A stretch of 64,000 bases of DNA from Lachnospiraceae bacterium (lineage in GTDB: Bacteria > Bacillota > Clostridia > Lachnospirales > Lachnospiraceae). Location: NCBI GenBank assembly GCA_017434885.1, contig JAFSGE010000031.1, positions 52,968 to 116,967 on the forward strand, read 5' to 3'. The translations under genes and the position numbers were made by a program. This document shows positions 43,669 through 61,394 of the stretch, one piece after another. Position 1 is the stretch's first letter. The number at the start of each line of letters is the position of its first letter. The notes beneath the pieces are model-generated. The model was not told the DNA's origin. It worked only from the letters and a program-made list of their open reading frames with translations, and ran no database searches.

Positions 43669-43965
43669 ATGACAATTGAAAAGAATCGAAACAATGAAGA
43701 ACTGATAATTGCACCAAAAGGACGTCTTGACACTGTGACAGCCCCTTCTTTGGAAGAAGAATTAAAAGCAAGTTTTGACGGTGTTCAGAAACTGGTATTG
43801 GATTTTAAGGCGCTTGAATATATTTCTTCAGCAGGCCTGCGCGTTCTTCTCATGGCACAGAAAACCATGAATAAGCAGGGGGTTATGGTAATCAGAAATG
43901 TGAATGAGACTATAGCAGAGGTGTTTGAAATTACGGGCTTTGCAGATATGCTTACGATTGAATAA
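43669..43965 (+). CDS. STAS-domain protein (anti-sigma-factor antagonist, SpoIIAA/RsbV-like)
   Basis: The start is moved to 43669 (RBS 'aaaggaga'). 98 aa. 'LVLDFKALEYISSAGLRVLL' carries the conserved phosphorylatable Ser context (Ser53/54), and 'FEITGFADML' is the C-terminal helix. Confidence 0.85.
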   Translation: MTIEKNRNNEELIIAPKGRLDTVTAPSLEEELKASFDGVQKLVLDFKALEYISSAGLRVLLMAQKTMNKQGVMVIRNVNETIAEVFEITGFADMLTIE

Positions 43966-43991
43966 GTGCGAAAAAAGAGGAAAAACCAGAT

Positions 43992-46241
43992 ATGAAAAAG
44001 AAAAAGAAAATATCCCAATCTTTTCAAAAGTGGTTATCTGTGGTGATTATGATTGCTTTTTTAGTAACCACGGTATGCCTTTGGGTGATTCAGACAAAAC
44101 TCTCTGAGAATAATGCAATTAAACTGCTGGCACTTAACATTTCTGATGTACGTGAAGATATCATTGATGCATCAGATGAAAATCTTTTAAAACTGACTCA
44201 TGAAATTGCAGAGGAATTAAATCAGACGAATGAGGTTACATCAGAGTTTCTTGAGCAATTGACGGCAAAGTATGATGTGACGGAAATTAATCGCATTAAT
44301 CCCGATGGAATTATAGATGCCAGTACTTATCCGGATTTCCTTGACTATGATATGCGCTCAGGTGCACAGTCGAGTGAGTTTCTGGTACTGCTTTCAGGAG
44401 ATAAGGAGTATGTACAGAGTTATCAGCCGGTTTCGTATGACGATTCCATTTCCCGTAAATATGGTGGTGTGGTTTTGAATAACGGAGGATTTGTGCAGGT
44501 CGGATACGGTTCGGAGCGGTTCCAGAAAGATATTGACGAATTTGTAGTAGGGGTTACCAGAAATCGTCATGTTGGAGAAGGCGGCAGTGTCATTATTGTA
44601 AATGAAGCGTGGAATATTGTCAGTGACAGGCAGGGGAATGAGGGAAAGAATCTTGAAACGGTAGGAGTATGGATAGATAGGGACAAAACACCTGCCGGAG
44701 AAGTGTTTATCGAAACAGTATACGGAGAACCCTGTTATTGTATGTATCAAATTTCGGAAGGGTATCTGGTACTTGCTGTCATGCCTACCGGTGAGGCAGC
44801 ACTTTCACGTAACGTTTCCGTAGGCGTGACAACAGCAATGCAGATTCTGGTGTTTGCTGCATTGTTCGCACTTATTTTCTTTTTAGTAAGACGACTGGTA
44901 GTAGATAATATTTATAAGGTAAATGAGTCTCTTTCGGCGATTTCAGAAGGAAGATTGGACACCACGGTAAATGTCCGTTCTCATGAAGAGTTTAATGCGC
45001 TTTCTGATGATATCAATGCTACGGTAAATACCTTAAAGCGTTATATTTCCGAGGCAGAGGCAAGAATTGATGCGGAACTGGCATTTGCAAAGGCAATACA
45101 GCATTCCGCACTTCCATCTGTATTTCCGCCTTATCCAAATCGCAAAGAATTTGATATTTGGGCAGGAATGTATACAGCAAAAGAAGTAGGCGGTGACTTC
45201 TATGATTTCTATTTTGTAGATGAAGATACATTGGCCTTTTTGGTTGCAGACGTTTCCGGAAAAGGAATTCCGGCGGCAATGTTTATGATGACAGCCAAAA
45301 CCTTTATCAAGAGCTTTGCGGAATCGGGAATGAGTGTAGAAGAAGTATTATCCCATGCCAATGAAAAGTTGTGTGAGGGCAATGATGCCAATATGTTTGT
45401 AACAGCATGGATGGGACTTTTAAATACAAAAACCGGAGTAGTTTCTTATGCAAATGCAGGACATAATCCTCCGTTGGTAAAGCACGGGGATGAAACCTTT
45501 ACTTACTTAAAATCCAGACCCGGTTTTGTTTTGGCGGGAATGGAAGGTGTCCGTTACCGTAAGAATGAAATACAGCTGTTACCGGGTGATTCCATCTATC
45601 TTTATACGGACGGTGTTACAGAAGCTACGAATATAGACAATGAACTCTATGGAGAAGAACGTCTGCTTCATGTCATGAATCAAAAAGCAAATCTGTCTTC
45701 ACAGGAACTTTGTGAAGCGGTAAAAGCAGATGTGGATGCTTTTGTCGGTGAAGCCCCCCAGTTTGATGATATTACTATGCTGTGCCTGAATTACTTTTCA
45801 CCGGATGAAAAAGGAGAAAAGAATAAGAAAGTGAAAGAACTGACCGTAAAGGCTACCGTGGAAAATATTGATGAGATTACGGATTTTATCAATGAACAGT
45901 TAGAAAGCATGAATTGTCCTATGAAAGTACAGATGCAGATAGATGTGGCAGTTGATGAAATCTTTGGAAATATTTGTCATTATGCTTACCCTTTAAGAGA
46001 GGGAGAGGCAACGGTCTTTGTGGAAATGCAGGAAGAAACGCAGGCGGTTGTAATGACCTTTATGGATAGCGGAATTCCATACAATCCGTTAGAAAAGGAA
46101 GAGCCGGATACCACACTTTCTGCAGAAGAAAGGGAAATAGGAGGCCTTGGCATCTTTATTGTAAAAAAAACTATGGATGAGATTTCATACCGATATGAGA
46201 ATGGGAAAAATATTCTTACCGTGAAAAAATATATGAAATGA
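43992..46241 (+). CDS. Membrane sensor: Cache-like extracytoplasmic domain, HAMP, PP2C (SpoIIE-type) phosphatase and a C-terminal SpoIIAB/RsbW-like GHKL domain
   Basis: Two TM helices flank a ~250-aa extracytoplasmic domain. The HAMP segment is 'VNESLSAISEGRLDTTVNVRSHEEFNALSDDIN'. PP2C motifs are 'GGDFYDF', 'ADVSGKGIPAAMFM', 'LYTDGVTEA' and 'DDITML'. The GHKL-like part has 'VDEIFGNICHYAY', 'MDSGIPYNP' and 'GGLGIFIVKKTMD'. Confidence 0.85.
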   Translation: MKKKKKISQSFQKWLSVVIMIAFLVTTVCLWVIQTKLSENNAIKLLALNISDVREDIIDASDENLLKLTHEIAEELNQTNEVTSEFLEQLTAKYDVTEINRINPDGIIDASTYPDFLDYDMRSGAQSSEFLVLLSGDKEYVQSYQPVSYDDSISRKYGGVVLNNGGFVQVGYGSERFQKDIDEFVVGVTRNRHVGEGGSVIIVNEAWNIVSDRQGNEGKNLETVGVWIDRDKTPAGEVFIETVYGEPCYCMYQISEGYLVLAVMPTGEAALSRNVSVGVTTAMQILVFAALFALIFFLVRRLVVDNIYKVNESLSAISEGRLDTTVNVRSHEEFNALSDDINATVNTLKRYISEAEARIDAELAFAKAIQHSALPSVFPPYPNRKEFDIWAGMYTAKEVGGDFYDFYFVDEDTLAFLVADVSGKGIPAAMFMMTAKTFIKSFAESGMSVEEVLSHANEKLCEGNDANMFVTAWMGLLNTKTGVVSYANAGHNPPLVKHGDETFTYLKSRPGFVLAGMEGVRYRKNEIQLLPGDSIYLYTDGVTEATNIDNELYGEERLLHVMNQKANLSSQELCEAVKADVDAFVGEAPQFDDITMLCLNYFSPDEKGEKNKKVKELTVKATVENIDEITDFINEQLESMNCPMKVQMQIDVAVDEIFGNICHYAYPLREGEATVFVEMQEETQAVVMTFMDSGIPYNPLEKEEPDTTLSAEEREIGGLGIFIVKKTMDEISYRYENGKNILTVKKYMK

Positions 46242-46287: not shown

Positions 46288-47406
46288 ATGACGGCTAGAG
46301 AAAAACTACTACAAATTGAGGATGTATATGACAGGGAAAGCACTTCGGAAATATTTTTGGAAGCGATGAGAGATTGTTTGGCTCATCATATGTCAGGCAA
46401 CGCTTTTTTTAAGAATTATATGGAGAAAGCAGGAGTAAAACCAGAGGATATCAAAACAGAGGACGACCTGGAAAAAATTCCGCCCATTCACGCCAACTTT
46501 TTTAAAAAATACGAGGTGCTCAGTGTGCCGTACGAAGAGATTGTGGAGCATGCAACCAGTTCCGGAACCACCGGACAAAAGAGCCAGATGTTTTTTGACC
46601 AAGATAGCTTCGATTTTGGGAATAACATGGTAAAAAACGAGTTTCGTCATTTTGGATTCCTTTCGGAGGAACAGACCAATTATCTTCTCTTTACCTATGA
46701 GCCGGCGCAGATAAGTAAGGATTTGGGAACCGCTAAAACGGATGTGGGATTACTTAGCTATGCACCGGTAAACGAGACATTTTTTGCCCTTCGCTATAAT
46801 GGTGAAGGACATGATTTTGATGTATACGGAACTATTAAGACTTTAGAAGAATATGAAAAGCAGGGATTACCGGTTCGTATTTTCGGATTTCCTTCCTTTC
46901 TCTATTTTACGGTAAGACAAATGAAGGAAACCGGACACAGACCGCTTCATTTAAATACCAAATCCATGACCATGCTGGGAGGCGGCTGGAAAGGATATGC
47001 TGATAAACAGATACAAAAGAGCGAGTTGTATGCAATGGTAGAAGAGATGCTGGGAATTCCGGCAGAGAATTGCAGAGACGGATATGGTTCCACGGAACAC
47101 TCCGTTCCTTACTTTGAATGCAAAAATCACCATTTCCATATACCGGTGTACAGCAGAATGCTGATTCGTGATGTGAAGACCTTAAGACCGTTACCTTACG
47201 GAGAACCGGGGTTTGCCAATTTTATTACACCTCATTTATTAAGTGTACCTGCCGTGTCGGTTTTGATGGGAGATATGGCAGTGCTGCATGATGCAAAAGA
47301 ATGCGGTTGCGGTATCAAGACACCGTTTATGGAAATTATCGGACGTGCGGGAACCAGCAAAGGAAAAAGCTGTGCAATTACTGCGAGCGAGCTGTTGAAG
47401 CGTTAA
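46288..47406 (+). CDS. LuxE-like acyl-protein synthetase (adenylate-forming)
   Basis: The start is moved to 46288 (RBS 'gaaggga'). It has 'SSGTTGQKSQ' and 'GYGSTE'. The C-terminus is 'CGCGIKTPFMEIIGRAGTSKGKSCAITASELLKR', with a Cys followed by exactly 10 residues. Confidence 0.75.
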   Translation: MTAREKLLQIEDVYDRESTSEIFLEAMRDCLAHHMSGNAFFKNYMEKAGVKPEDIKTEDDLEKIPPIHANFFKKYEVLSVPYEEIVEHATSSGTTGQKSQMFFDQDSFDFGNNMVKNEFRHFGFLSEEQTNYLLFTYEPAQISKDLGTAKTDVGLLSYAPVNETFFALRYNGEGHDFDVYGTIKTLEEYEKQGLPVRIFGFPSFLYFTVRQMKETGHRPLHLNTKSMTMLGGGWKGYADKQIQKSELYAMVEEMLGIPAENCRDGYGSTEHSVPYFECKNHHFHIPVYSRMLIRDVKTLRPLPYGEPGFANFITPHLLSVPAVSVLMGDMAVLHDAKECGCGIKTPFMEIIGRAGTSKGKSCAITASELLKR

Positions 47407-47419: not shown

Positions 47420-49885
47420 ATGGAATTCATTATAAGAGGAAAAAAAGTTGAATTATTGAAAGAGAATTGCTTTCAAGGAATTGAAGAACAAATAATGACC
47501 GATTTGTCGGCAGGCACACCGGATATCCGGAAAGTAATTGCAAGTTTGGATAAACTGGGACATTTTTTGGCAGAAAATGAAACATTTCTCCTTCAAGAGC
47601 TGATGGAACTTGGGCTTTCCAAGGGAGAGGCACTGCAGGTGAAAAAGGAATCTCTTGCCGTTTTATCTGCAGAGGAATTGTTCAAAAAGGTTAAGCGAGA
47701 GTTAGGAGAACTGCCGTTTGAAATAGCAAGGGTAAGTACCCGGGAAGAGGAATTTGAAGGATGGATGCCGGTTGGTGTTTTAGGCCATGTAACCAGTTCC
47801 AATGATGCTATGCTTCCGTTTTTTAGTTCAGTGGAAGGAATTCTTACAGGAAATATTAATGTGATTAAAACTGCAAGCGGTGCTCACAAGGTAGCCATGA
47901 CACTGGTAGAAAAGCTTTGTGAGATAGATGCATCTCTTTGCCCTTATTTTTATGTATTTCCTTTATCCTCTAAAGATGAGAAGTTACTGCAAACCATGTT
48001 TTCCTTATGTAACACCATTGCCGTATGGGGTTCCGATGCAGCGACAGAAGGAGTAAGAAAGCTGGCACCTTCAGGGGTTAAGATTGTGGAATGGGGAAAT
48101 CGTATCAGCTTTGCTTATATAACCAAGAAGGGCAGAACCAAGGAAAGCCTCAGGGGACTTGCAGAGGATGTCTGTGTCAATGACCAGCAGGCCTGCAGCG
48201 CACCCCAGCTTGTTTTTTATGAAGCAGATAACAGAGAAGATTTAGAGCAGTTTGCGCAGGAATTAATGACGGTGTTGCAGGAGGTTTCCGATACCTATCC
48301 CATTCACGAAATCTCACAGGCAGAGCAGGCGGAGCTGACCACTCAAACCCGGTTATGTTACTTGGATGAAGTGATGGGAGAAGCCAGACTGCTTGAAGGA
48401 GAGGGCTGCCGTATTTTTGTGAAGTATGACAATGAGCTTTGTGCTTCGCCGTTATATCGTACGTTGATTGTAAAAGCAATTAAGAGAGAGGATATCATAT
48501 CCGTGCTGCGGCCGTTCCGTTCCTACTTGCAGAGTGTGGGACTTTCCTGCGGCAGAGATGAAATAGCTTTGCTTACCCGCATTTTACTTGCCGGCGGTGT
48601 CAACAGAATTACACAGCCGGGTCTTATGATGGGTGGATATACGGGGGAACCCCATGACGGAGTCTATGCACTCTCTCACTACCTGAAAAGAGTCAGCTTA
48701 ATTTCTGACAATTTGCCCAAAGGAAGTATGTCGTTAAGTGAAATGGAACAGGTGGGAGAGGCTCCCTTTGAGGAGGGAACCCCGTTACTAAAGAAAGATG
48801 ATTTCCCTTCACAAAGAGAGATAAAGGATAAAGGATATCTTTTGCTAAAAAGCGGCGGAAGCTCAGGAAAAGCAAAGTATGCGCCTCATTCCTACGATGA
48901 TGCGCAGACTACCTATGATGAGGGCGCCAGGTTTATTATTGCAGCAGGGGTGGACCCCAAGAAGGATGTGTGTATGAATCTCTTTTATTCCGGAGATTTG
49001 TACGGTGGCTTCATCAGTATTTATGAGGCATTAAAAAAAGCTGATATCATTCAATTGCCAATGACTGCCGAGATGGATATGAAGCATGTGGCGGAAGAGA
49101 TTATTGCAAACCGTGTAAATGTACTTCTTGGAATGCCTACCTACTTACAGCGCCTTTTCCGGGAACAGAAGGAAGCCTTACAGGCATATGGAGGCGTGGA
49201 AACAGTACTTTATGGCGGAGAGCATTTTGACCCTGCCCAGATAACATATTTAAAGGAAACATTCGGCATTAAGAGAATCGGTTCGCTGGCATACGGCTGT
49301 AACGAAATCGGCTCTATGGGATATGCCTGTGAATATTGCGAGGGAAGCATCCATCATGTGGTGGCAAGTAAATATCTTGAGATATTAAAGCCGGATAAGG
49401 ATGAGCCGGTGGAAGAGGGAGAAATCGGAAGGCTGGTCTGGACTCCTGTTGACCAGGAAAATATCAGTATCAAGAGATATGAAATCGGAGATATGGGACG
49501 TTTTGTCAAAGAACCTTGTAAATGCGGACGTATTGCTCCCCGCTTTGAACTGCTTGGAAGATTCGGAGATACCTTTAAATTTGCAACCAACTACGTGAAC
49601 TACACCAGGATTAAATCTGTATTTGCCGAAAAGATGGGATATACCGGCTGGCTTCAGATTCTTTTGAATTATGATACGGTCAGCTGCATGACAATCTGCG
49701 TAGAGAAGGATTTTGCATATAGCGCATGTGATGCTCTTATGATTTTAAAGGAGCAGTATCCTGAAATAGAAGAGTGCATGCGGGATGAAACCGGAAATGT
49801 CCGGATTGTTTTGCAGGAAAGAGATGCCTTTTTGTTAAGCACAGGCGGTGGAAAGGTAAGAAGTGTGGTAGACAGAAGAATTTAA
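47420..49885 (+). CDS. Fusion of a LuxC-like acyl-CoA/acyl-protein reductase (ALDH-like) and a PaaK/F390-synthetase-like adenylate-forming domain
   Basis: The N-terminal ~450 aa has 'GVLGHVTSSNDAMLPFFS', 'NVIKTAS' and 'VNDQQACSAPQLVFY'. The C-terminal ~370 aa has 'KSGGSSGKAKY', 'YGGEHF' and 'YEIGDMGRF'. The preferred ATG is 47420 (RBS 'ggagg'). Confidence 0.75.
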   Translation: MEFIIRGKKVELLKENCFQGIEEQIMTDLSAGTPDIRKVIASLDKLGHFLAENETFLLQELMELGLSKGEALQVKKESLAVLSAEELFKKVKRELGELPFEIARVSTREEEFEGWMPVGVLGHVTSSNDAMLPFFSSVEGILTGNINVIKTASGAHKVAMTLVEKLCEIDASLCPYFYVFPLSSKDEKLLQTMFSLCNTIAVWGSDAATEGVRKLAPSGVKIVEWGNRISFAYITKKGRTKESLRGLAEDVCVNDQQACSAPQLVFYEADNREDLEQFAQELMTVLQEVSDTYPIHEISQAEQAELTTQTRLCYLDEVMGEARLLEGEGCRIFVKYDNELCASPLYRTLIVKAIKREDIISVLRPFRSYLQSVGLSCGRDEIALLTRILLAGGVNRITQPGLMMGGYTGEPHDGVYALSHYLKRVSLISDNLPKGSMSLSEMEQVGEAPFEEGTPLLKKDDFPSQREIKDKGYLLLKSGGSSGKAKYAPHSYDDAQTTYDEGARFIIAAGVDPKKDVCMNLFYSGDLYGGFISIYEALKKADIIQLPMTAEMDMKHVAEEIIANRVNVLLGMPTYLQRLFREQKEALQAYGGVETVLYGGEHFDPAQITYLKETFGIKRIGSLAYGCNEIGSMGYACEYCEGSIHHVVASKYLEILKPDKDEPVEEGEIGRLVWTPVDQENISIKRYEIGDMGRFVKEPCKCGRIAPRFELLGRFGDTFKFATNYVNYTRIKSVFAEKMGYTGWLQILLNYDTVSCMTICVEKDFAYSACDALMILKEQYPEIEECMRDETGNVRIVLQERDAFLLSTGGGKVRSVVDRRI

Positions 49886-49903: not shown

Positions 49904-51157
49904 ATGAGCATTAAAACATATTCATTGGATGAAATCATCCGTTATGCCAGAACACATTCAAAATATTATGCCGATTTATACAAAGATATTCCTGAGGATG
50001 CGCCCTTTGAGGCGCTGCCCCTGATTAATCAGGATGACTTTTGGGCTCATTGTGACCAGGACGGAGGAACAGTGGCGACCGGGAAACAGGCAGACGGACA
50101 GATATTCAAAAGCGGCGGAACCACGGGAGATCCGAAGTACTCTTTATATACTGCGCAGGAGTGGGAAACGCTGTGTGAAGGCTGCGCATCGGTAATGGTC
50201 AAAGGAGGACTGCAAAACGGCACTAAAATTGCCAATCTTTTCTATGCAGGCGGTATGTATGCCAGCTTCTTATATACCTATAGCATGTTATATTTTGCAC
50301 CGGCAAAAACAATTATGTACAATCTTTCCGGAAATGTGTCGGTAGAAGAGATTGTATCCACAATTTTGAAGCATCAGGTCACCTGCCTTGCGGGGGTACC
50401 GTCTATTTTGACCAAAATTGTTTCTTACATTGATGAACATCAGATGACGGGTTTTGCAGTAGATACCGTCTATTTTGCAGGGGAAACCCTGTATATGGAC
50501 CAAAGAGAAAAAATCTCCAGGACCTTTGGAAGAGAGATTTCCTTCCGTTCCTGTTTTTATGCATCCAATGACGGAGGTCCTATCGGATATTTTACAAAGG
50601 ATTGCGGGTTTAACGAGCACAGAGTGATGTCGGAGTTATGTAAACTGGAGCTGATTGATGCTGATACCGGTGAGATTATCACAGAGCCGAACAGACCCGG
50701 AGTGATTTATATTACATCACTTTTTAAAACCTTAATCCCCATGATCCGTTACCCTGCCGGTGATATGGGAGAATATGTGGAGCCGGAAGGGAATGTGGAC
50801 CGTAAATTCAGAATTTTGGGAAGAAGCAATGTAGCTGCCAGAGCCGGTTATGTGACCTTATATCCCCAGGATGTGGGAGAAATTTTGAACAAGTGCGGTA
50901 TTGAATATTATGCCTATCAGATTATCGTAACACATAACGTGCGGGATAAATTTACATTTAAAATTGCGGCAAAACAGGAAAGCGGTCAGAATACAGAAAA
51001 GTTTTTGGAGATGCTGTATCGGGAACGCAGCCTGATGCAGGATGCCCTAAACGACGGTACACTGGATGAACCTGAAGTGGAGTGGTGTAAGGCAACAGAC
51101 CTTGAATACAATGAAAGAACGGGTAAGCTGAAGATTATTATTGATAAGAGAAAGTAA
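49904..51157 (+). CDS. Phenylacetate-CoA ligase-like (PaaK/CapK family) adenylate-forming enzyme
   Basis: 'FKSGGTTGDPKY', 'YFAGETL', 'RYPAGDMGEY' and 'FRILGRSN'. Confidence 0.8.
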   Translation: MSIKTYSLDEIIRYARTHSKYYADLYKDIPEDAPFEALPLINQDDFWAHCDQDGGTVATGKQADGQIFKSGGTTGDPKYSLYTAQEWETLCEGCASVMVKGGLQNGTKIANLFYAGGMYASFLYTYSMLYFAPAKTIMYNLSGNVSVEEIVSTILKHQVTCLAGVPSILTKIVSYIDEHQMTGFAVDTVYFAGETLYMDQREKISRTFGREISFRSCFYASNDGGPIGYFTKDCGFNEHRVMSELCKLELIDADTGEIITEPNRPGVIYITSLFKTLIPMIRYPAGDMGEYVEPEGNVDRKFRILGRSNVAARAGYVTLYPQDVGEILNKCGIEYYAYQIIVTHNVRDKFTFKIAAKQESGQNTEKFLEMLYRERSLMQDALNDGTLDEPEVEWCKATDLEYNERTGKLKIIIDKRK

Positions 51158-52608: not shown

Positions 52609-53904
52609 ATGGTAGGCAAGACGATAATGCTCTTTGATGAATTTGGACGGATGCAGATACTGGACGGTATGCGTTATTATAAGAAGACACAGGAAGAGAA
52701 TAATATGCCTCGTTTTGTGATTACCATGACAGAGGAAATTGATAGGGAATGCCTGCAGTATGCAGCCAAGGTTGCCATGCAGAGGTTCTGTGTACAGCGT
52801 TTGGTAGCGGAAGCGGATGAGAGTCGTTTCTATTTAAAACAGAATCTTCAAGAGCCGGTTGTTCATTTAGACAACGGAGAGAGGCATATCGTGTGTAATG
52901 AGAAAAACAGAGGACATATGATATGGATAGGGTATAAAGAATGCGATATTATTGTTGACTTTTTTCATGGTGTTTCGGATGGTATTGGTATGATGCCCTT
53001 TATGGTGCTGCTGTTAACTTCTTATTGCCAAAAAAAATATAGCAATAAAATATACGAAAAGACAGATTTGCAGTCCGGTGGGAATGAAAATGAATATACT
53101 GAGGCTATCCGCTTCTTACCGGAAGAGCCTGTTGTTACAGAGCATTCTTACCGGTGGAAAAGTGCTTTGCAGTTAAAAGGCAGGCAGATGAAGCTAAAGA
53201 GTGGTTGTCATTATTATGTTTTATCTGTGGATGGAGATGCCTTTGATGATTATGTAACAAGAAATGGTTCCTGCCGTTCGGCAGTATTTGCCATGTTTAT
53301 GAATCAGGCAATAGCAGGCATACATAAAGTGGATACAAAACCCATAGTAGCAGCTATGGCAGTCAACGCAAGGAAGGCTTACGGAGCAGAAGAGACCCTG
53401 CAGTGTTGTGTGGCCACGATACCGCTATGGTATGACAGGGAAATAGCAGAACTTTCCGTATCGGAAAGATTAAAAAAGGGCAGAGCAATGGTGTCGGAAG
53501 GCGTAAAGAAGGAATGTGTTCTTTGGGGAGCACAAAAAAAACGGCTGCTCAATCAGAATTTGGAAGCAAATTATCCTACTCTTGAAGAAAAGAGGGCGCA
53601 TTGCAGAAGGCTTACGGATAGCAGTAGCGACAGATACACTTATGGATTAAGTTATCTGGGAAATATCAGTTTTGGGGAGTTTGCAGATGCTTACGTGAGA
53701 GATGTAAGAGTGATGCTCTGTGCAAATACCGTTCCGCTTATTTTGGAAATTTTAAAATGGAAGGGAAAGTATACGATTAGTTATAACACCCATCTGGAAG
53801 AGGATAGATATTTGAAGGAATTGATGGTAATGTTTCAGGAGGCGGGCATTACCTGCAATTGCGTAAAGCAGGAGATGTTTGAAGAGGCATTGGCAGATTT
53901 TTGA
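52609..53904 (+). CDS. HxxxD-motif acyltransferase-like protein (condensation / WS-DGAT / PapA5 superfamily candidate)
   Basis: 431 aa. 'IIVDFFHGVSDGIGMMPF' lies about 115 residues from the N-terminus, as in condensation-type acyltransferases. There are no other diagnostic motifs, and the start is uncertain. Confidence 0.45.
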   Translation: MVGKTIMLFDEFGRMQILDGMRYYKKTQEENNMPRFVITMTEEIDRECLQYAAKVAMQRFCVQRLVAEADESRFYLKQNLQEPVVHLDNGERHIVCNEKNRGHMIWIGYKECDIIVDFFHGVSDGIGMMPFMVLLLTSYCQKKYSNKIYEKTDLQSGGNENEYTEAIRFLPEEPVVTEHSYRWKSALQLKGRQMKLKSGCHYYVLSVDGDAFDDYVTRNGSCRSAVFAMFMNQAIAGIHKVDTKPIVAAMAVNARKAYGAEETLQCCVATIPLWYDREIAELSVSERLKKGRAMVSEGVKKECVLWGAQKKRLLNQNLEANYPTLEEKRAHCRRLTDSSSDRYTYGLSYLGNISFGEFADAYVRDVRVMLCANTVPLILEILKWKGKYTISYNTHLEEDRYLKELMVMFQEAGITCNCVKQEMFEEALADF

Positions 53905-53952: not shown

Positions 53953-54939
53953 ATGAATGAAGAATCTGTAAAAATCCGCGAAATGCTGCTAAAATGTTAC
54001 GGAGTCGATATAGAAGAGGCGAAATGCCATTTTTCTACACAGAATTATGCCTATATATTTCCAAATCATCCGTACATGATTCGTGTCAGTAAGATGCCCA
54101 AAAAGACAAGAAAAGAGATACTCAGTGAGTTAATGTGGGTAGATGATTTGAAGCAATTCAAACAGACAATTTGTGAACCCAGCGTTTCCATCGGCGGAAA
54201 AATTTTGGAAGAATTTGAGATTGACGGTGTGACATATCGGGCAAGTATGTTCCGGACGGCACGGGGAAACGTGCAGGTATCAACGGAAATGACGCCGATG
54301 TTTTTTATTTGCGTGGGAGAATTGTTGGGTATTATTCATCATGTCAGTACGGATGAACGTGAAAACGGGATGAAATTCCAGAGAAAAGAGCTGAAGGATA
54401 TTTTTGCACAGCAGAAAGAAAAGGTGTGGGAAAAATTGAAACCGGAGATTCAAGGCAGGATTACAGCCATTGAAACACAGGTAAATTCACTGCCGCAAGA
54501 CCTTGGAACTTATGGCATTTGCCATGGGGATTTCCAGGCCAATAATTTTTTTGTAGAGGCCAATAATGTCTGGCTGTTTGACTTTGACGGATGTTGCTAT
54601 GCCAATTATCTGTATGATGTGGCAAGCTTTATTTTATCTTGTTTTCTCGGAGGATTTGGTGGCGGTAAGGAGTGCAGTCAGGTTATAGAGGAGATTTTGC
54701 ACTATTTGAAAATAGGCTATGAATTAAATCATAAATGTACAGATGAGTACTGGGAACAATTGCCGTTATTCATAAGTTATCGTGCAGCATATACGGCACT
54801 GATGTTGGCAGAAATAGAAACCTGTGGTGTGGTTTCCAGCCTGGATGAGATTAAAGAATTCTTTTCATTTATTCTTCTTCAGGATGACATTTATGAGGGG
54901 ATTACAAAAGTAATCAGTGAGAGAAAGAGCCGGCTATGA
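53953..54939 (+). CDS. APH/choline-kinase-family small-molecule phosphotransferase
   Basis: The Brenner motif is 'ICHGDFQANNFF' and the Mg-binding motif is 'LFDFDGCCY'. The RBS is 'aagagga'. Confidence 0.8.
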   Translation: MNEESVKIREMLLKCYGVDIEEAKCHFSTQNYAYIFPNHPYMIRVSKMPKKTRKEILSELMWVDDLKQFKQTICEPSVSIGGKILEEFEIDGVTYRASMFRTARGNVQVSTEMTPMFFICVGELLGIIHHVSTDERENGMKFQRKELKDIFAQQKEKVWEKLKPEIQGRITAIETQVNSLPQDLGTYGICHGDFQANNFFVEANNVWLFDFDGCCYANYLYDVASFILSCFLGGFGGGKECSQVIEEILHYLKIGYELNHKCTDEYWEQLPLFISYRAAYTALMLAEIETCGVVSSLDEIKEFFSFILLQDDIYEGITKVISERKSRL

Positions 54940-56690
54940 AAAACAGTTATCTGATAAGAAAACTCTATTTATCATTTTTGATTGTGTCAATTCTTTCCGC
55001 TCTTACTGCTACGGTGGGAATATTGATTGATAATATTATAGTAGGAATGTATTTAGGTGATGTTTCATTAGGCGCTATGGGGATTGTGGGGCCTATCAGT
55101 CTTATTTTTTCCGCAATCGGAAATATATGTTCCGGAGGCGGAACGGCCAGAGCGGCGCAGGCATTGGGAAAAGGTGATGGGGAAGGCTTGTATCAGATTT
55201 TTACAGTTACTGTGCTGTTTGCTGTAGCAGGGGGATTTCTCATTACTATTTTGGGACTGCTGTTCACTCCGCAGCTGGCGGAGCTTCTTGGGGCAAAAGG
55301 AGAATTACTTGAACCATCCATTCAGTATTTGCGGGGCTACTTTCTGGGGGCTGTTCCCACAATTATGCTTACGGCCCTTTCCGGATTTGTAAAGATAGAC
55401 GGTTCACCAAGATTGCCGCTCATATGCATTATAGTAATGTCTTCGGCAAATATTATTCTGGATTTTTTGATGATTCATGCATTTCATCTCGGAATGTTCG
55501 GTATGGCACTTGCAACTACCATCAGTTATGTGGTGGCAGTATTGATTGCCTGCACACATTTTTTTAAGAAGCATTCTACGCTTCGATTGGTAGTGCCAAA
55601 GAAAATGCTTGGCGAGTGGATACAGATGGTTACGACAGGTGCACCTACAGCAATCAGTAGGGTTTGTGATACCGTAAAGGTCATGGTGCTGAATCATATG
55701 CTGGTGTTGTTTGTGGGAGTAGGTGCTGTTACCGCGTTAAGCATAAGGACGCAGGCATATAGCTTTTTTGGTGCATTTTTGATAGGAATTGCCCAGGCGT
55801 CTGTGCCGTTAACCGGATTATTCTACGGAGAAGAAGATATAACAGCGTTAAAGGATATCTTAAAAAATACATTAAAAATCGGACTTTTTATCAATGTAAT
55901 ATTGGCAGTGTTGCTGTTTCTGACAGCACCGTTTTTCGTGGAACTTATGGGTGTTTCCGAGCCGGAAACAAAAAAAATGGCAGTAAATGCGGTCAGGCTG
56001 TTTGCAATCGGCGTGCCTTTTGCGCTGATTAACTACATATTTATGAGCTTTTATCAGAGTACGAAAAGAATAGCCATGGCAACCATGATTTGTGTATTAC
56101 AGTCTTTGGTATATGTGTTACTTATAGCGGTGCTTTTAATTGGAACACTTAAGGAAAGTGGGATATGGCTTGCATTTTTGGCAGCAGAAATATTAACAAT
56201 TTTCACGACAATAGCAGTGATAGCTTATCACTGCAGAAAAATTCCGGGAAAGATTACAGATTTCATGTTGCTAAAAGAAGACTTTGGAAGCAGAGAGGAA
56301 GACCGATTGGAAATTTCCGTAGGGAATGATATGGTGGAACTGGTGAACATATCTGCAGGCATTCATAAGTTTGGCGAAGGGCGCAACATCAGTCAAAAGC
56401 TTCTTAAGGAGTTGGCGCTGTGCATTGAAGAAATCGGTGGCAATGTGATACATCATGCTTTTCGTCCGGGTGAGAAAAAGTGGTTTGATATCATGATTCT
56501 GGATAAAAAGGATTTACTTATTGTGCGTCTTCGTGATAATGGAGCCGCTTTTAATCCGGTTAATTACTGCGATGACTATGATATGAAGAAAGAAAAATAT
56601 GGACTACAGTTAATCCGTAGTATGGCAGACGACATGAAGTATAAGAGAACTTTGGAAATGAATAATATCATTATTACTTTTAAGAAATAA
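54936..56690 (+). CDS. MATE-family efflux transporter fused to a C-terminal SpoIIAB/RsbW-like GHKL domain
   Basis: It has a ~440-aa 12-TM MATE core. The cytoplasmic ~140-aa tail has 'LALCIEEIGGNVIHHAF' (N-box-like), 'LRDNGAAFNP' and 'KYGLQLIRSMADDMKY'. The start overlaps the upstream stop (ATGA). Confidence 0.8.
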   Translation: MKNSYLIRKLYLSFLIVSILSALTATVGILIDNIIVGMYLGDVSLGAMGIVGPISLIFSAIGNICSGGGTARAAQALGKGDGEGLYQIFTVTVLFAVAGGFLITILGLLFTPQLAELLGAKGELLEPSIQYLRGYFLGAVPTIMLTALSGFVKIDGSPRLPLICIIVMSSANIILDFLMIHAFHLGMFGMALATTISYVVAVLIACTHFFKKHSTLRLVVPKKMLGEWIQMVTTGAPTAISRVCDTVKVMVLNHMLVLFVGVGAVTALSIRTQAYSFFGAFLIGIAQASVPLTGLFYGEEDITALKDILKNTLKIGLFINVILAVLLFLTAPFFVELMGVSEPETKKMAVNAVRLFAIGVPFALINYIFMSFYQSTKRIAMATMICVLQSLVYVLLIAVLLIGTLKESGIWLAFLAAEILTIFTTIAVIAYHCRKIPGKITDFMLLKEDFGSREEDRLEISVGNDMVELVNISAGIHKFGEGRNISQKLLKELALCIEEIGGNVIHHAFRPGEKKWFDIMILDKKDLLIVRLRDNGAAFNPVNYCDDYDMKKEKYGLQLIRSMADDMKYKRTLEMNNIIITFKK

Positions 56691-56700: not shown

Positions 56701-58422
56701 ATGGACAATAGATATAAGTACAGGCATAATCCAATTGTAAAGAAAATCTTTATGACAATGTTAGTTCCAACTATTTTTATGAATTTAACAACGGCGATTG
56801 CTTCCATGGCGGATGCAATTATTATCGGACAGTATCTGGATGATGCCTCCTTGTCAGTAGTAACTTTTGCAATGCCTATTTTTTTGATTATTAATGTTTT
56901 TTCCGCTCTGCTTGCAGTGGGAGGATGTATTTCCATGAGTATAGATGCAGGAAAGGGCGATAAAGAGGAAGCCAATAAAGCATTCAGTATTTCAATAGAA
57001 CTGCTTTTAGCTATGGGAGTATTGTTATTGCTTGCCGGTTTATTTTTCAGTCGTACCATTACAGGTTGGCTGGGGGCAGGAGAAGATATATTTGAATCCG
57101 TGGAACTGTATTCCCGGATTATTCTGATGGGCGGACCATTTTTTGTACTGAATACGGGACTTGCATTTTTTGTGAGAAATGACGGAAGACCAACGCTGTC
57201 CATGATGGGAATGTTTGCTTCTATTTTTGTAGATATTACATTGAATTTTGTATTTGTGGGAGTGATGAAAATCGGAGTGGCCGGTGCGGCTTATTCCACA
57301 GTAATAGGAAGCATTGTCAGTGTACTCATTGTATGCACACATTTCTTTCATGCGAAAAATACATTGAAATTCTGTTTTGCTTTTGACAGCATGGCAATAC
57401 GGATTATGAAAAACGGCGGAAGTACAGCCCTGCAATTTATTTACCAGTTTGTTACAGTACTTATTATGAATCATTTCCTCGCGGATTTGTCAGGAACAGG
57501 TGGTGTAGTTGTTTATACAGTGGTAATTAACCTTTCTACAGTGGCCCTTTCGTTGTTTGAAGGAATCAGTCAGACCATACAGCCGATGGTCAGCAATTAT
57601 TTTGGAGAAAAAAGTTATCGGAAAATGAAGGAAGTGTTGCGACTTGCTTTTATTACTACTCTTGTGATATGCGGAAGTATTACTATACTTCTTGAGGCAA
57701 TGCCGCAGTGGATTCCCATGATTTTTGGAATTGAAGATGCAGCGTTGATGGCAAATTCTGTGATTGCGGTACGCATTTATACGGCAGGTATGATTATTAC
57801 AACCGTAAATGTATTGATTAGCTATTATCTTCAGTCTATTGAACAGACCTTAATGTCAGCTGTCATAGTCAGTTTACGCAACTTTGTATTGCTGTTATGT
57901 GCAGTGTTTGTTCTCGGTAAACTGTTCGGAATGAATGGGATATGGGCAGCTTACCCGGTAGCAGAGGTTCTTACATTTTTTGTTGGCATTGGAATGATTT
58001 GTGCCAAACAGAAGAAACTGGAAAAGACCGGAAAGCATATGAACATTTTTTTGTTGGATGAAACGGTTGAATGGAACACGGAATGTTATACATATGATAG
58101 CATGAACGATGCTTTCCCTGATTTTTGCGATATTGTACTTCAATCTTTGGCAAGGAGAGGAGAATGTAGCGGAGAAATGGCACAGGATGCTGAAAACTAT
58201 CTGTTACAGCTTGGAAACGGAATCAAAAAGAAAAAAGGAAATTATATTGAAATGGAAGTAAATGGTCTTGAAAAAACCATCATTATCAGAGACAATTTGA
58301 ATCATGCAGATATTCCTGTAAATATTCAGGATACGATAAAAAGCGATAGTAATTCGGATTATGGTCCTGTGCTTGGATGGAACAGATTGATCCGTAAGGA
58401 AATAAAAAACAAAGAGGTGTAA
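56701..58422 (+). CDS. Second MATE-family efflux transporter with a ~135-aa divergent cytoplasmic C-terminal domain
   Basis: It has a 12-TM MATE core. The tail, 'AENYLLQLGNGI...YIEMEVNGLEKTIIIRDNLNHADIP...DYGPVLGWNRLI', is colinear with the tail of the upstream MATE but degenerate. Confidence 0.8.
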   Translation: MDNRYKYRHNPIVKKIFMTMLVPTIFMNLTTAIASMADAIIIGQYLDDASLSVVTFAMPIFLIINVFSALLAVGGCISMSIDAGKGDKEEANKAFSISIELLLAMGVLLLLAGLFFSRTITGWLGAGEDIFESVELYSRIILMGGPFFVLNTGLAFFVRNDGRPTLSMMGMFASIFVDITLNFVFVGVMKIGVAGAAYSTVIGSIVSVLIVCTHFFHAKNTLKFCFAFDSMAIRIMKNGGSTALQFIYQFVTVLIMNHFLADLSGTGGVVVYTVVINLSTVALSLFEGISQTIQPMVSNYFGEKSYRKMKEVLRLAFITTLVICGSITILLEAMPQWIPMIFGIEDAALMANSVIAVRIYTAGMIITTVNVLISYYLQSIEQTLMSAVIVSLRNFVLLLCAVFVLGKLFGMNGIWAAYPVAEVLTFFVGIGMICAKQKKLEKTGKHMNIFLLDETVEWNTECYTYDSMNDAFPDFCDIVLQSLARRGECSGEMAQDAENYLLQLGNGIKKKKGNYIEMEVNGLEKTIIIRDNLNHADIPVNIQDTIKSDSNSDYGPVLGWNRLIRKEIKNKEV

Positions 58423-58425
58423 AGA

Positions 58426-58935
58426 ATGAAGTGGAAATTATTCTATGTGATAACGGTTATCGGCATGATAACGGTCGGAAGTATTGGCTGCAAAAGCGCA
58501 GATGACAGTACAGCAAAGGAGAAAGATTCGGTTGTTGAGAAAGTAGAAATTTTACCACAGGATAGTACAGGAGAAACAGGTGTAGAAACTGAAAACAGTG
58601 AGTATTATCTGAATGATGCCGGTATTCTGGTGGATAAGGTTGAAGAATTTAAAACCCAGTCCTTCGGGGAGTACTCCTTAACCTATCCGATTCTGGAAGA
58701 AGGTGTGGATGAGGTTGCTGTATATGAATTTGATACCAATGAAAATGTTCACATTGTGCTGGATGCAACCAATATTTATCAGCAGATTAGCCTGGATACC
58801 CAGGGAGATTACGGAGCTGTAGAGCTTGAAGTGGTTGCACAGGCTGAAGGGATTTTGTATATGTATGATGGAGAACGGTATTATATTGAAGATGAAGTAA
58901 ATAATTTGCTGACGATATCAGATTCAATAAAATAA
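58426..58935 (+). CDS. Small lipoprotein of unknown function
   Basis: The lipobox is 'GSIGCKS'. 169 aa. It starts 3 nt after the MATE stop. Confidence 0.7.
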   Translation: MKWKLFYVITVIGMITVGSIGCKSADDSTAKEKDSVVEKVEILPQDSTGETGVETENSEYYLNDAGILVDKVEEFKTQSFGEYSLTYPILEEGVDEVAVYEFDTNENVHIVLDATNIYQQISLDTQGDYGAVELEVVAQAEGILYMYDGERYYIEDEVNNLLTISDSIK

Positions 58936-58962
58936 ATAAAAGAGACAAGAAAGGGAAAAAGG

Positions 58963-60873
58963 ATGAAAAAGCACAAAAGAATTTTATCACTGCTTCTTGC
59001 CGGTATGCTGGCAATGTTATTACTTGTCGGTTGCGGTAATGCAGATGCAGAAGCAGTAGAAACAACTGGAACAGCAGAAGCAGCAGAAGCAGCGGAATCA
59101 ACAGTGGAAGCTGTGGAATCAACTTTGGAAGAAACGGCAGATGCGGACGCAAAAGCAGAGGAAAACACCACAGACGATGATATCGTTATTTTGTATACCA
59201 ATGATGTACATACTTACGTGGACGGTCCCATCAGCTATGATGTCATTGCTGCCGTTAAAAAGGAACTTCAGACTAAATACGGATATGTATATCTGGTGGA
59301 TGCAGGAGACCATATTCAGGGAACGGCCTATGGCTCTATGGATAATGGGGAAACAATTATCAAAATGATGAACGCGGCGGGCTATGATGCGGCTACCTTG
59401 GGAAATCATGAGTTTGACTATGGTATGTTCGGATGTATGAAGGTAATTGATATGGCTGAATATCCTTATGTATCCTGCAATTTTCATCATGAAGCAGGGG
59501 GTGTATGCGGTGATAATGTATTAGACAGTTACAAGCTTTTCACAGCAGGGGAAGAAACTGTTGCACTTATCGGTATTACTACACCTGAGACCTTTACCAA
59601 AACCACCCCTGCATATTTCCAGGATGAAACGGGAAACTTTATTTACGGTATTGCAGGAGGCGAAGATGGTAGTGAGCTTTATGTAGCTGTTCAAAAAGCA
59701 ATTGATGGTGCGATGTCAGCAGGTGCAACCAAAGTGATTGCATTGGGACATCTTGGAGATGATTTATCTTCCGTACCTTGGACCAGTGAGGAAACCATTG
59801 CAAACGTAACCGGCCTTCATGCCTTTATTGACGGACACTCTCACAGTACGGTAGAAGGTAAGAAAGTTGCTGACAAGGACGGCAATCAGGTGGTATTAAC
59901 CCAGACAGGACAGTATTTTGACAGAATCGGAATAATGATAATTGACGCTGAAAGCGGCGATATCACTACGGATTTCATTGAATACAAAGAAGTTCTGGCA
60001 GCAGATGGTGAAACTGTGGAAGGCTATGAATTATGTTCTGACATGTATGAAGGAACAGAAATGATATATGATACAGAGGTACAGGCAATCAAGGATGCAT
60101 GGATTGCAGAAATTGATAACAAGCTTGGACAGAAGGTAGGAGAGGCAACAGTAGTTCTGGACAATTATGATGCGGAAGGAAATCGTATGGTCAGAGGACA
60201 GGAAACCAATACCGGCGATTTCTGTGCGGATGCATTGTATTATTTGTTTGATGATATGGAAATGGATGTAGATGTCAGTATTATGAATGGCGGCGGCATC
60301 CGTAACAAGGCAGTTACAGGAGAAGTTACATACAAAACCTGTAAGGACATCCACACCTTTGGAAATGTGGCATGTTTGCAGACTGTTAGCGGACAACAGA
60401 TTTTGGATGCACTGGAATGGGGGAGCAGACAGCTTGGTTCAGGAGAAGAGAGCGGCGGATTTTTGCAGGTTTCCGGGTTGACTTATCACATTGATACTTC
60501 CATGCCATGTACGGTACAGCAGGATGAAAATGGAATCTGGACCGGTGGACCTACAGGAGAATACCGGGTACATGAAGTGAAGGTTTATAACAAAGAAACC
60601 AATGAATGGGAAGACCTGCAGCTGGATGCTGAGTATAATCTGGCAGGCTATAATTACACACTTAGGGATTTGGGTGACGGATGTGCCATGTTTGAGGGCG
60701 CAGTCAATGTCCTTGACTATGTGATGGAGGATTATATGGTTCTGGCAAACTACGTGCAGGGATTTGAAGGCGGCATAGTAGATGCAGATAATTCTCCTCT
60801 TTTGGAAAAATATTCCGGTTTTGTGATAAACTACAGTGAAACAACAGGAAGCGGACGAATCAAAATAGAATAA
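58963..60873 (+). CDS. Lipoprotein 5'-nucleotidase / metallophosphoesterase (UshA-like) with an acidic low-complexity linker
   Basis: The lipobox is 'LLVGCGN'. Metallophosphatase motifs are 'TNDVHT', 'DAGDHIQG' and 'GNHEFD'. A C-terminal 5'-nucleotidase substrate domain is present. Confidence 0.85.
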   Translation: MKKHKRILSLLLAGMLAMLLLVGCGNADAEAVETTGTAEAAEAAESTVEAVESTLEETADADAKAEENTTDDDIVILYTNDVHTYVDGPISYDVIAAVKKELQTKYGYVYLVDAGDHIQGTAYGSMDNGETIIKMMNAAGYDAATLGNHEFDYGMFGCMKVIDMAEYPYVSCNFHHEAGGVCGDNVLDSYKLFTAGEETVALIGITTPETFTKTTPAYFQDETGNFIYGIAGGEDGSELYVAVQKAIDGAMSAGATKVIALGHLGDDLSSVPWTSEETIANVTGLHAFIDGHSHSTVEGKKVADKDGNQVVLTQTGQYFDRIGIMIIDAESGDITTDFIEYKEVLAADGETVEGYELCSDMYEGTEMIYDTEVQAIKDAWIAEIDNKLGQKVGEATVVLDNYDAEGNRMVRGQETNTGDFCADALYYLFDDMEMDVDVSIMNGGGIRNKAVTGEVTYKTCKDIHTFGNVACLQTVSGQQILDALEWGSRQLGSGEESGGFLQVSGLTYHIDTSMPCTVQQDENGIWTGGPTGEYRVHEVKVYNKETNEWEDLQLDAEYNLAGYNYTLRDLGDGCAMFEGAVNVLDYVMEDYMVLANYVQGFEGGIVDADNSPLLEKYSGFVINYSETTGSGRIKIE

Positions 60874-61392: not shown

Positions 61393-61394
61393 GA

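Follow-up and report, generated by a model that had tools for sequence, protein, structure and literature searches.

A partner-switching operon of a ruminant-gut Lachnospiraceae bacterium whose candidate output is a GHKL-tailed export pump rather than a sigma factor

Partner switching is the textbook route to sigma-factor control, and the question raised by the locus described here is what such a switch could act upon when no sigma factor is found with it. The locus lies in a 64,000-nucleotide stretch of contig JAFSGE010000031.1 from a Lachnospiraceae bacterium (referred to below, at its full length, as the window), where a STAS protein and a membrane sensor carrying phosphatase and kinase domains are encoded together with acyl-activating enzymes, a small-molecule kinase, two MATE exporters and two lipoproteins (g01 to g12, Table 1). 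GHKL-like domains of the SpoIIAB/RsbW type are found on five proteins of this region: the sensor g02, the exporters g09 (MATE1) and g10 (MATE2), the N-terminus of the enzyme g06 and the divergent ATPase of the neighboring ATP-binding cassette (ABC) operon. The presence of such domains on export pumps suggests that the phosphorylation switch controls export directly, and not through transcription. An initial annotation, made from the sequence alone, had already tethered GHKL-like domains to the sensor phosphatase, to both MATE proteins and possibly to an enzyme; this is borne out, for MATE2 at the level of the fold only, and to the transporter tails can now be added the domains located on the g06 N-terminus and on the minus-strand ABC ATPase.

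The canonical features of a partner switch, namely a STAS protein with a phosphorylatable serine, a GHKL kinase of the RsbW/SpoIIAB type and a PP2C phosphatase, are all encoded in the window. The STAS protein g01 starts at an ATG preceded, 8 nt upstream, by AGGAG, and its candidate phospho-serines are S53 and S54 within the motif YISSAGLR. It is 40–68% identical to the free STAS proteins encoded beside MATE–GHKL genes in other genomes, which are 97–107 aa long and mostly 98, and by sequence it is assigned to the STAS subfamily of these loci. The sensor g02 is built from a first transmembrane helix, an extracytoplasmic segment of ~240 aa, a second transmembrane helix, a weak HAMP match (E 0.044, Pfam), a PP2C domain whose SpoIIE match covers profile positions 1–190 of 192, and a GHKL tail. 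This tail aligns to RsbW of Bacillus subtilis (PDB 6M36) and conserves E..N..H, D.G and GGLG, so that its N, G1 and G2 boxes are intact. No Cache family is matched by residues 1–375 at E<=10 in Pfam, and phmmer found no sequence relatives of the extracytoplasmic segment in the PDB. The Cache domain of the initial annotation, and with it the extracellular Cache ligand that it had proposed, is therefore left without sequence support, while all its other domain calls were recovered by Pfam, NCBIfam or structure, HAMP weakly.

No member of the Sigma70 family was found in the window among the open reading frames (ORFs) scanned or carrying precomputed Pfam calls, a search that left aside a few long ORFs between 7.6 and 20.7 kb and two ORFs of ~160 aa without matches; the earlier statement that the 64 kb hold no sigma factor stands for the ORFs examined. 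The family is also absent from the 25 commonest Pfam families of 150 sigma-sized unassigned ORFs of related loci, among which response regulators, GNATs, DUF975, GntR and TetR proteins are the most frequent. As no sigma factor recurs in the 47 related loci, a cognate one is not a regular neighbor of these genes.

The GHKL-like domains differ in their motifs. Among those of the operon and its neighbors, only the g02 tail keeps the complete RsbW kinase set (E..N..H, D.G..YNP and a lid reading TLSAEER.IGGLG), which is also seen in stand-alone GHKL proteins of ~136 aa and in the PP2C tails of related loci. In MATE1-type tails the N box (EE..GN..H) and the G1 box (RDNG..F[D/N]P) are invariant across 14 sequences 54–73% identical to g09; motif alignment with RsbW (6M36) reveals an ATP lid ~10 residues shorter and a G2 box reduced to a single Gly. 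The MATE1 tail is assigned from its Pfam match and this motif alignment, searches of the PDB by sequence or profile having returned only designed-repeat artefacts and weak VraS/RsbW matches. In the MATE2 tail the N box is gone, whereas RDN and the C-terminal GWN motif (YGPVLGWNR) are conserved; the tail is kept across the 120 homologues listed, none of which has a Pfam match for it. Its alignment to the MATE1-tail profile (hhalign) is collinear and not significant, with E 0.1 and 0.07 for the tail alone and for a 24-sequence profile. Its AlphaFold2 (AF2) model (pLDDT 87) retrieves SpoIIAB, RsbW, UsfX or Rv1364c as 16 of the 18 top PDB matches in Foldseek, among them the RsbU–RsbW part of Rv1364c (3KE6), at E 1e-3 to 8e-2 and TM ~0.5; the other two are a single Leptospira response regulator, LvrC. 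At the g06 N-terminus a HATPase_c_2 match (E 2e-3, Pfam) covers residues 33–88 and the N-box Asn is replaced by Lys; homologues in two other genomes (L061 and L062; 52–58% identical) have stronger precomputed HATPase_c_2 matches and keep the Asn. The tail of the ABC ATPase is related to the g02 tail by BLASTP (1e-5) and by an iterated GHKL hidden Markov model (HMM; 2.5e-27), and has lost the Asn, the G1 Asp and the G2 glycines. The same ABC–GHKL architecture adjoins the APH and MATE–GHKL genes in L025, whereas the corresponding ATPase of L063 is tailless; the tail of the window is a possible further STAS target beyond the operon. The five domains are thus not equivalent: MATE1 lacks the lid and G2, and those of MATE2, g06 and the ABC ATPase are degenerate. 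Since the full motifs occur only in the g02 tail, there is one plausible STAS kinase, and the other GHKL domains would be of the receiver or scaffold type. A more far-reaching reading is that RsbW-like tails without a lid, as borne by MATE proteins, some ABC ATPases and further membrane enzymes, act as receptors dedicated to STAS in its unphosphorylated form; through them the switch would directly open or close a pump and couple it to an APH-fold kinase. This is put forward tentatively, as a good possibility that stays somewhat below the probable.

The MATE1 fusion belongs to a large family. The 120 clusters listed (of 322 matches), which are 55–99% identical, all carry both domains, and the source databases name them only 'MATE family efflux transporter'. 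A profile of the MATE1 tail matched 1,099 cluster representatives at E<=1e-10 out of 1.84 billion, mostly MATE fusions of ~580 aa. Some MATE proteins bear two tandem GHKL (HATPase_c_2) domains, and one TagF-like glycerophosphotransferase has the same tail (P0289, P0299, P0362, P0388). In a scan of one genome per species, in which iterated HMMs of the window proteins served to map the neighborhoods, 48 loci were found, nearly all in Lachnospiraceae or other Clostridia of animal guts. The close set comprises 32 of these, with a MATE protein at least 45% identical to g09. The APH gene lies directly upstream of the MATE–GHKL gene in 31 of the 32, with a median gap of -1.5 nt and an overlap in 15 of 30 pairs; the 4-nt overlap of g08 and g09 is consistent with translational coupling. 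A STAS domain, free or fused, occurs within 10 kb in 16 of the 32 (one more lies just past the flank); for SpoIIE the number at this distance is 13, and 21 of the loci have at least one component of a partner switch. Therefore, the neighborhood link that the initial annotation had asked about exists for STAS and PP2C with the MATE1–GHKL family; it does not extend to LuxC/LuxE, which among the MATE1–GHKL loci are found only in the window species.

A minimal four-gene unit of APH, MATE–GHKL, STAS and sensor–PP2C–GHKL is present in L009 and L024. In L009 (7731–13369), genes for MobA_MobL, a serine recombinase and an integrase of the phage type lie around this unit, a hint that it may be mobile. 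Carriage on plasmids was considered and dropped, as PLSDB holds no full-length fused homologue. The enzymes that adjoin MATE–GHKL genes are mostly adenylate-forming and biosynthetic (nonribosomal peptide synthetases, NRPSs; A–T didomains; GH3; LuxE): large NRPSs with a terminal reductase stand beside the pair in L010 and L026, and an A–T didomain with a g07-like protein in L027 and L040. Several arrangements recur around these genes. A GH3-family amido synthetase precedes a more distant MATE–GHKL in seven loci (L019, L041, L044, L053, L054, L055, L058). A sub-module found near APH and MATE–GHKL in L008, L021, L022, L030 and L038 comprises STAS, a ~966-aa protein whose large extracytoplasmic N-terminus is fused to MFS_1, a GNAT of ~190 aa and a sensor–SpoIIE protein. 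In two of these loci (L021 and L030), genes for a cNMP-binding protein of 164 aa and a stand-alone GHKL protein separate the MATE and STAS genes.

The kinase is tied to the switch in a second way. In six MATE–GHKL loci, a ~390-aa fusion of STAS to an APH-fold kinase is encoded within 5.3 kb of the pump, in five of them directly adjacent; two of these fusions scanned by Pfam gave STAS matches up to 3e-16 and APH matches of ~2e-10. A metagenome scan seeded with the fusions retrieved at least 574 related stretches, and of the 33 fused metagenome loci of at least 5 kb, 26 have SpoIIE, GHKL or free STAS genes within 5 kb and two a MATE gene. By this measure of gene neighborhood, kinases of the APH fold recur in the sigma-less partner-switching modules of these bacteria, and the fusion supports a functional link between kinase and switch. 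The metagenome loci (L066–L130, from rumen and gut) show the kinase motifs GxGGxGxVY (Gly-rich loop), HGDxHxxN and IDMxD; their STAS–APH genes are typically embedded in modules of free STAS, SpoIIE–GHKL and stand-alone GHKL, and two of them stand in tandem in L068 and L083. Taken as a 'Rosetta stone' in the strict sense, the fusion would point to contact of STAS with the MATE tail; this argument is weakened by the lack of a MATE gene at most metagenome fusions, and the fusion alone is no proof of such contact.

For the role of g08 there is a precedent. The only PDB family related to it at E<=0.01 is the amicoumacin kinase AmiN (6SUI/6SUM), with E 2.4e-14 to 6SUI over residues 6–278 (phmmer). 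In the amicoumacin cluster, AmiN inactivates the product, which is then exported, and a phosphatase reactivates it (AmiN/AmiO/AmiP; PMC6156654), and the self-resistance scheme of kinase, exporter and phosphatase proposed below follows this precedent. The candidate phosphatase of the window, the lipoprotein g12, is predicted to be extracytoplasmic and belongs to the 5'-nucleotidase family, not to the alkaline phosphatases of the AmiO type, and the exporters are MATE rather than MFS proteins; the amicoumacin system is not known to include a partner switch.

The operon is not a single integrated unit, as the initial annotation had supposed, and comparison with five other genomes points to two cassettes. 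Cassette A consists of LuxE, LuxC–ANL, ANL, GHKL–GNAT and MATE2, and is a five-gene operon in four other Clostridia genomes (L061–L064), where its members are LuxE, LuxC/ANL, MATE2, a ~480-aa g06 homologue and a 417-aa ANL protein; no STAS, SpoIIE, APH, MATE1 or g07 gene lies within 8–10 kb of it there. At the center of cassette B is the APH kinase directly upstream of MATE1–GHKL. In a sister species (L065), with a solute-binding protein (SBP) 72% identical to that of the window and cassette A proteins 77–92% identical, the order is SBP, APH, MATE1–GHKL, RelA_SpoT (364 aa), HD_4, Acyl_transf_3, LuxE, LuxC/ANL, ANL, g06 and MATE2. The window retains a truncated RelA_SpoT, whose residues 1–106 are 84% identical to the start of the intact 364-aa protein (L065:5442–6536), and lacks the rest of it together with the HD_4 hydrolase and the Acyl_transf_3 protein that L065 has there. 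The remnant is directly followed by the STAS and PP2C–GHKL genes, and the APH–MATE1 pair, preceded by g07, now stands between g06 and MATE2. The sequence ACAATTAGG is present twice at the RelA_SpoT break, at ~43556 and ~43580. Because cassette A is autonomous in L061–L064, and because L065 keeps APH–MATE1 and cassette A apart, the twelve-gene arrangement is read, from gene order and identity, as a recent merger of cassette A (biosynthesis and export) and cassette B (switch, kinase and pump) under one promoter. As cassette A occurs elsewhere without a nearby STAS or SpoIIE, the GHKL-like domains of g06 and MATE2 do not need the STAS of the window, and these two may pair with each other instead.

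The chemistry of the operon is encoded mainly by g03 to g07. A LuxC–ANL fusion of the g04 type is found at every cassette A locus, and g03, g04 share their families with LuxCDE, that is, a LuxE-like synthetase and a LuxC-like reductase domain. The differences from LuxCDE are that LuxC is fused to an ANL domain, that there is no luciferase and no LuxD-type protein among the twelve ORFs, and that the neighbors are a GNAT, a condensation-like enzyme and exporters; the NCBIfam equivalog scores for LuxE and LuxC are far below the cut-offs (99 against 550, and 73 against 750). An analogy to leupeptin was considered and dropped, as the published account lacked the enzymology sought. For g07 no Pfam or NCBIfam family was matched, and phmmer against the PDB gave only spurious armadillo matches. 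Its AF2 model, from a 25-sequence alignment, has pLDDT 91 and pTM 0.90, and Foldseek relates it (E 5e-16) to NRPS condensation domains (Txo2, SrfA-C, TomB), PapA5 and TRI101. The motif FHGxxDG is invariant across the 25 homologues (F119-H120-G121..D124 in g07), and g07 is accordingly predicted by structure modeling to be a free-standing condensation-type acyltransferase; its homologues adjoin MATE–GHKL in L027, L040, L047 and L052.

From the domain identities, motif states, gene order, conservation and co-occurrence, we infer a model whose binding, phosphorylation, substrate and gating steps would run as follows. The sensor g02 would perceive an extracytoplasmic or membrane signal and set the phosphorylation state of the STAS protein, its PP2C domain removing the phosphate and its RsbW-type tail adding it, in the manner of SypE. 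Unphosphorylated STAS would dock on the MATE1 tail, which lacks the lid and is probably impaired as a kinase, and perhaps also on the tail of the ABC ATPase; docking would change the activity of MATE1, so that export is gated post-translationally. The AmiN-like kinase g08 would protect the cell by phosphorylating the product, or a toxic compound related to it; both MATE pumps would export the masked compound, and g12 may unmask it outside the cell, following the logic of AmiN/AmiO and of StrA/StrK in streptomycin. Cassette A would make and export a small aldehyde or amide derived from an acyl or aminoacyl precursor, and the g06 N-terminus and MATE2 tail would most likely tether enzyme to exporter, like a SpoIIAB dimer, rather than signal. 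This whole package, in which g02 sets the STAS state, STAS gates export at the MATE1 tail, the product is masked by the kinase and cassette A is held together by tethering, falls only just short of what we would call probable; the degrees of confidence expressed for it and for the other readings overlap in part and need not sum to unity.

Several observations weigh against this model. About half of the close MATE1–GHKL loci have no STAS within 10 kb, and none was seen in the retrieved part of the contig of the sister species (L065); the MATE1 tail must therefore be able to function in the absence of an adjacent STAS gene, or rely on a distant one. It could still be an ATPase or a kinase, as its invariant N and G1 boxes might indicate, and not a passive receiver. 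The STAS–APH kinases are distantly related to g08 and mostly do not stand beside MATE genes, which would make two APH subfamilies independently associated with the module. The GHKL assignment of the MATE2 tail is borderline by its Foldseek E-value. Finally, g12 may belong to the chemistry of cassette A rather than to the reversal of the kinase, because an enzyme of the 5'-nucleotidase family is also found with cassette A in L061, where APH is missing: in this locus a 1,099-aa Metallophos/5_nucleotid_C protein (L061:1–2963) and an Acyl_transf_3 membrane acyltransferase (L061:3013–4080) precede the cassette, as does Acyl_transf_3 in L065 (L065:7043–8125).

An alternative is that APH and MATE1–GHKL, with STAS and PP2C, form a self-contained phosphorylate-and-pump defense against an exogenous antibiotic, only physically linked to cassette A. 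The pair occurs in many loci without recognizable biosynthetic genes (e.g., L013, L014, L017) and beside the mobilization and integrase genes of L009, it is separate from cassette A in L065, and AmiN homologues such as YerI confer resistance on their own (PMC6156654). However, the pair directly follows NRPS, A–T/C-like or LuxE-type enzymes in L010, L026, L027, L040 and the window, it has stayed close to cassette A through the rearrangement in both species ('72% apart'), and no fused homologue was found on PLSDB plasmids; a resistance function of this kind is considered unlikely. Another possibility is that the GHKL-like domains are mainly SpoIIAB-style dimerization modules holding together a membrane metabolon (g06 with MATE2, g02 with MATE1), with STAS as a minor modulator. 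SpoIIAB and RsbW are obligate dimers, and their structures (1TH8, 6M36) are among the matches of the MATE2 tail; in cassette A a single GHKL-like enzyme is invariably accompanied by a single MATE carrying a GHKL-like tail, without STAS, and some MATE proteins have two GHKL domains in tandem. Yet such scaffolding leaves unexplained both the invariant nucleotide-binding residues of the MATE1-type tail and the specific co-occurrence of STAS and PP2C with this type, and as a general account it is rather improbable.

The wiring proposed by the initial annotation, in which one STAS protein is the phosphorylation-gated partner of all GHKL-like domains and switches synthesis and export in response to a Cache ligand, has in its favor that a single operon and its immediate neighbor encode five such domains and one STAS protein, that STAS and PP2C co-occur with MATE1–GHKL, and that the rearrangement has put everything under one promoter. 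The part that concerns MATE1 survives in the association of STAS and PP2C with its family. The part that concerns cassette A does not, as this cassette, with its GHKL-bearing GNAT and MATE2, is complete in four genomes with no STAS or SpoIIE within 8–10 kb; moreover, the g06 and MATE2 domains are the most degenerate and a Cache domain was not detected, so that a single STAS serving all five domains is improbable. Least likely of all is that g01 and g02 control a sigma factor encoded elsewhere and that the transporter tails are unrelated nucleotide-binding or dimerization domains, since the full set of RsbW catalytic motifs in the g02 tail, the view of only 64 kb of the genome and the half of MATE–GHKL loci without a nearby STAS are outweighed by the clustering of switch genes with MATE–GHKL, far more frequent than a handful of STAS genes per genome would lead one to expect (16 of 32, the expectation being estimated, not computed), by the separate subfamily that the STAS proteins of these loci form and by the absence of any recurrent sigma family among the 150 sigma-sized neighbors.

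Non-sigma outputs of partner switching have been described before, as in SypE/SypA, BtrUVW and RbaVWY (PMC8256260, PMC3999984). With the Bacillus systems RsbV/RsbW/RsbU–SigB and SpoIIAA/SpoIIAB/SpoIIE–SigF, the locus shares identical domain families (STAS, RsbW-type GHKL and PP2C); it differs from them in that no sigma factor was found, in that a single membrane sensor combines kinase and phosphatase, and in that additional GHKL-like domains with degraded ATP lids are carried by transporters and an enzyme. An RsbW-like kinase and a PP2C phosphatase on one polypeptide are also found in Rv1364c of Mycobacterium tuberculosis and in SypE of Vibrio fischeri, the latter acting on the STAS protein SypA with a non-sigma output (PMC8256260). 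The domains of SypE are arranged in the reverse order, around a central receiver, and, unlike the situation of SypA, the candidate target here, the GHKL tail of a pump, is encoded in the same operon. In Anabaena, the STAS–glycosyltransferase All4160/HenR is controlled by a PP2C phosphatase and GHKL kinases (PMC13555669), a phospho-switch on a fused enzyme to which the STAS–APH fusions are analogous; in the window it is the GHKL partner, not STAS, that is fused, and the fusion is to exporters rather than to a glycosyltransferase. Anion transporters of the SulP/SLC26 family carry a C-terminal cytoplasmic STAS regulatory domain (PMC8256260), so that in both cases a transporter bears one half of a STAS/anti-sigma pair as a cytoplasmic C-terminal domain. 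The arrangement described here is the mirror image, as MATE and ABC proteins bear the anti-sigma-like GHKL half and STAS is free or fused to a kinase. Within the searched literature, no description was found of transporter fusions to HATPase_c_2 or anti-sigma-like domains, or of STAS–APH fusions. The initial annotation knew of no described system wired in this way; sigma-less switching in itself is already known, and it is the transporter-borne GHKL receiver that appears new.

The block is a single real operon of 12–13 genes (Table 1). Twelve ORFs on the + strand extend from 43621/43669 to 60873, and their gaps are, in order, 26, 46, 13, 18, 17, 12 (or 30), 48, -4, 10, 3 and 27 nt, with starts picked by independent gene callers on identical metagenome contigs; the earlier co-directional reading and its gaps of -4 to 48 nt are reproduced. 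To the earlier count of twelve can be added a possible thirteenth gene, a small ORF rich in Cys that precedes the terminator; it contains a CPVC motif and matches Cys_rich_CPCC weakly (E 0.028), and RNA folding found no hairpin between it and g12. It overlaps a second small + strand ORF (61058–61330), and the two occupy the 470 nt from g12 to the terminator and may be one frameshifted gene. Both flanking hairpins folded better than all of their shuffled versions (0 of 200 shuffles folding equally well), and the downstream one is a perfect 20-bp stem flanked by an A-run and a U-run. A consensus terminator scan gave 26 weak hairpin-plus-T matches, against 12.7 in shuffled sequence, all within coding sequence and none in any intergenic gap of the operon, in agreement with the terminators first noted on either side and with their absence inside.

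Table 1. Features of the operon and its borders in the window, with the evidence for each.
Feature	Coordinates	Strand	Evidence
Intrinsic terminator of the upstream SBP_bac_3 gene (5' boundary)	43145..43180	+	fold -20.6 kcal/mol, z -7.1, then U-run
Truncated RelA_SpoT (small alarmone synthetase) remnant, scar of the rearrangement that brought STAS and PP2C to this site	43223..43573	+	Pfam covers profile positions 1-55 of 113
g01, 98-aa single-domain STAS protein (anti-sigma antagonist family)	43669..43965	+	Pfam STAS 1e-17; TIGR00377 6e-22
g02, membrane sensor with PP2C/SpoIIE domain and RsbW-type GHKL tail	43992..46241	+	SpoIIE 1e-54; HATPase_c_2 2e-21
g03, LuxE-like acyl-protein synthetase (ANL superfamily)	46288..47406	+	Pfam LuxE 8e-34; in cassette A of L061-L065
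g04, LuxC-type acyl reductase fused to PaaK-like ANL adenylating domain	47420..49885	+	LuxC 3e-78; AMP-binding 1e-10
g05, PaaK-like ANL ligase	49904..51157	+	AMP-binding 2.5e-7; AMP-binding_C_2 3.6e-5; PaaK/DVU1553 NCBIfam matches
g06, three-part enzyme: GHKL-like (~1-140), GNAT (~170-290), conserved C-terminal domain	51175..52596	+	Acetyltransf_1 2e-6
g07, predicted free-standing condensation-domain-superfamily (HxxxD) acyl/peptidyl transferase	52609..53904	+	structure prediction and Foldseek
g08, APH-fold small-molecule kinase	53953..54939	+	APH 5e-12; overlaps g09 by 4 nt
g09 (MATE1), MATE exporter with C-terminal RsbW-like GHKL tail (~455-584)	54936..56690	+	MatE 1e-36; HATPase_c_2 5e-11
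g10 (MATE2), MATE exporter with ~125-aa degenerate SpoIIAB-like tail	56701..58422	+	MatE 2e-30; tail by fold
g11, 169-aa lipoprotein	58426..58935	+	lipobox SIGC
g12, lipoprotein 5'-nucleotidase-family metallophosphoesterase, extracytoplasmic	58963..60873	+	5_nucleotid_C 9e-25; Metallophos 2e-6; lipobox LVGC
Possible 13th gene, 96-aa Cys-rich ORF	60889..61179	+	called as gene on independent assemblies
Bidirectional terminator common to the operon and the convergent ABC operon (3' boundary)	61342..61393	.	-22.3 kcal/mol, z -7.0
ABC ATPase with degenerate C-terminal GHKL tail (~240-366)	61395..62495	-	ABC_tran 9e-36; HATPase_c_2 2e-3

The MATE assignment of g09 and g10 comes from PF01554 matches in two stretches of each protein, and their TIGR00797 scores (140 and 125 bits) lie just under the 147-bit cut-off. 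The lipoprotein g11 has no match in Pfam or PADLOC. The operon splits an ABC system of the polar-amino-acid type: the SBP_bac_3 lipoprotein gene (42255–43133, +) lies upstream, and the downstream half, on the minus strand, comprises the GHKL-tailed ATPase and a permease (62492–63160), beyond which a sensor kinase (HATPase_c/HATPase_c_5) is encoded. Further away, on the minus strand, a DUF975 gene stands beside two adjacent ORFs of ~160 aa without a Pfam match (35883–36599, 36652–37134 and 37147–37635), and DUF975 is among the commonest families near MATE–GHKL in other genomes (4 of 150 neighbors). A phage-defense reading was dropped, as the PADLOC defense-system models gave no match for nine operon proteins; the neighboring ABC ATPase gave generic ABC matches only. 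In the scan of one genome per species, the closest MATE1, 96% identical, comes from the metagenome-assembled genome RGIG2054 of goat colon, and the host is an uncultured Lachnospiraceae bacterium of the ruminant gut.

Few non-sigma outputs of partner switching are known and their targets are mostly obscure, whereas here a candidate target is written into the gene architecture. If the model is true, this would be the first partner-switching system with a transporter as its output, a functional mirror of the STAS-bearing SulP/SLC26 proteins, and one widespread in gut Clostridia beside small biosynthetic clusters. If STAS gates the pump, metabolite export and self-resistance would be under post-translational control in abundant Lachnospiraceae of gut and rumen, orphan STAS/PP2C/GHKL modules would gain a direct read-out, and the old connection between STAS domains and transporters would gain a functional rationale. 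Two uncharacterized conserved cassettes are defined, the LuxE/LuxC–ANL/ANL/GHKL–GNAT/MATE operon and the APH plus MATE–GHKL pair, and in the gut their products and substrates might be aldehydes or amides with biological activity.

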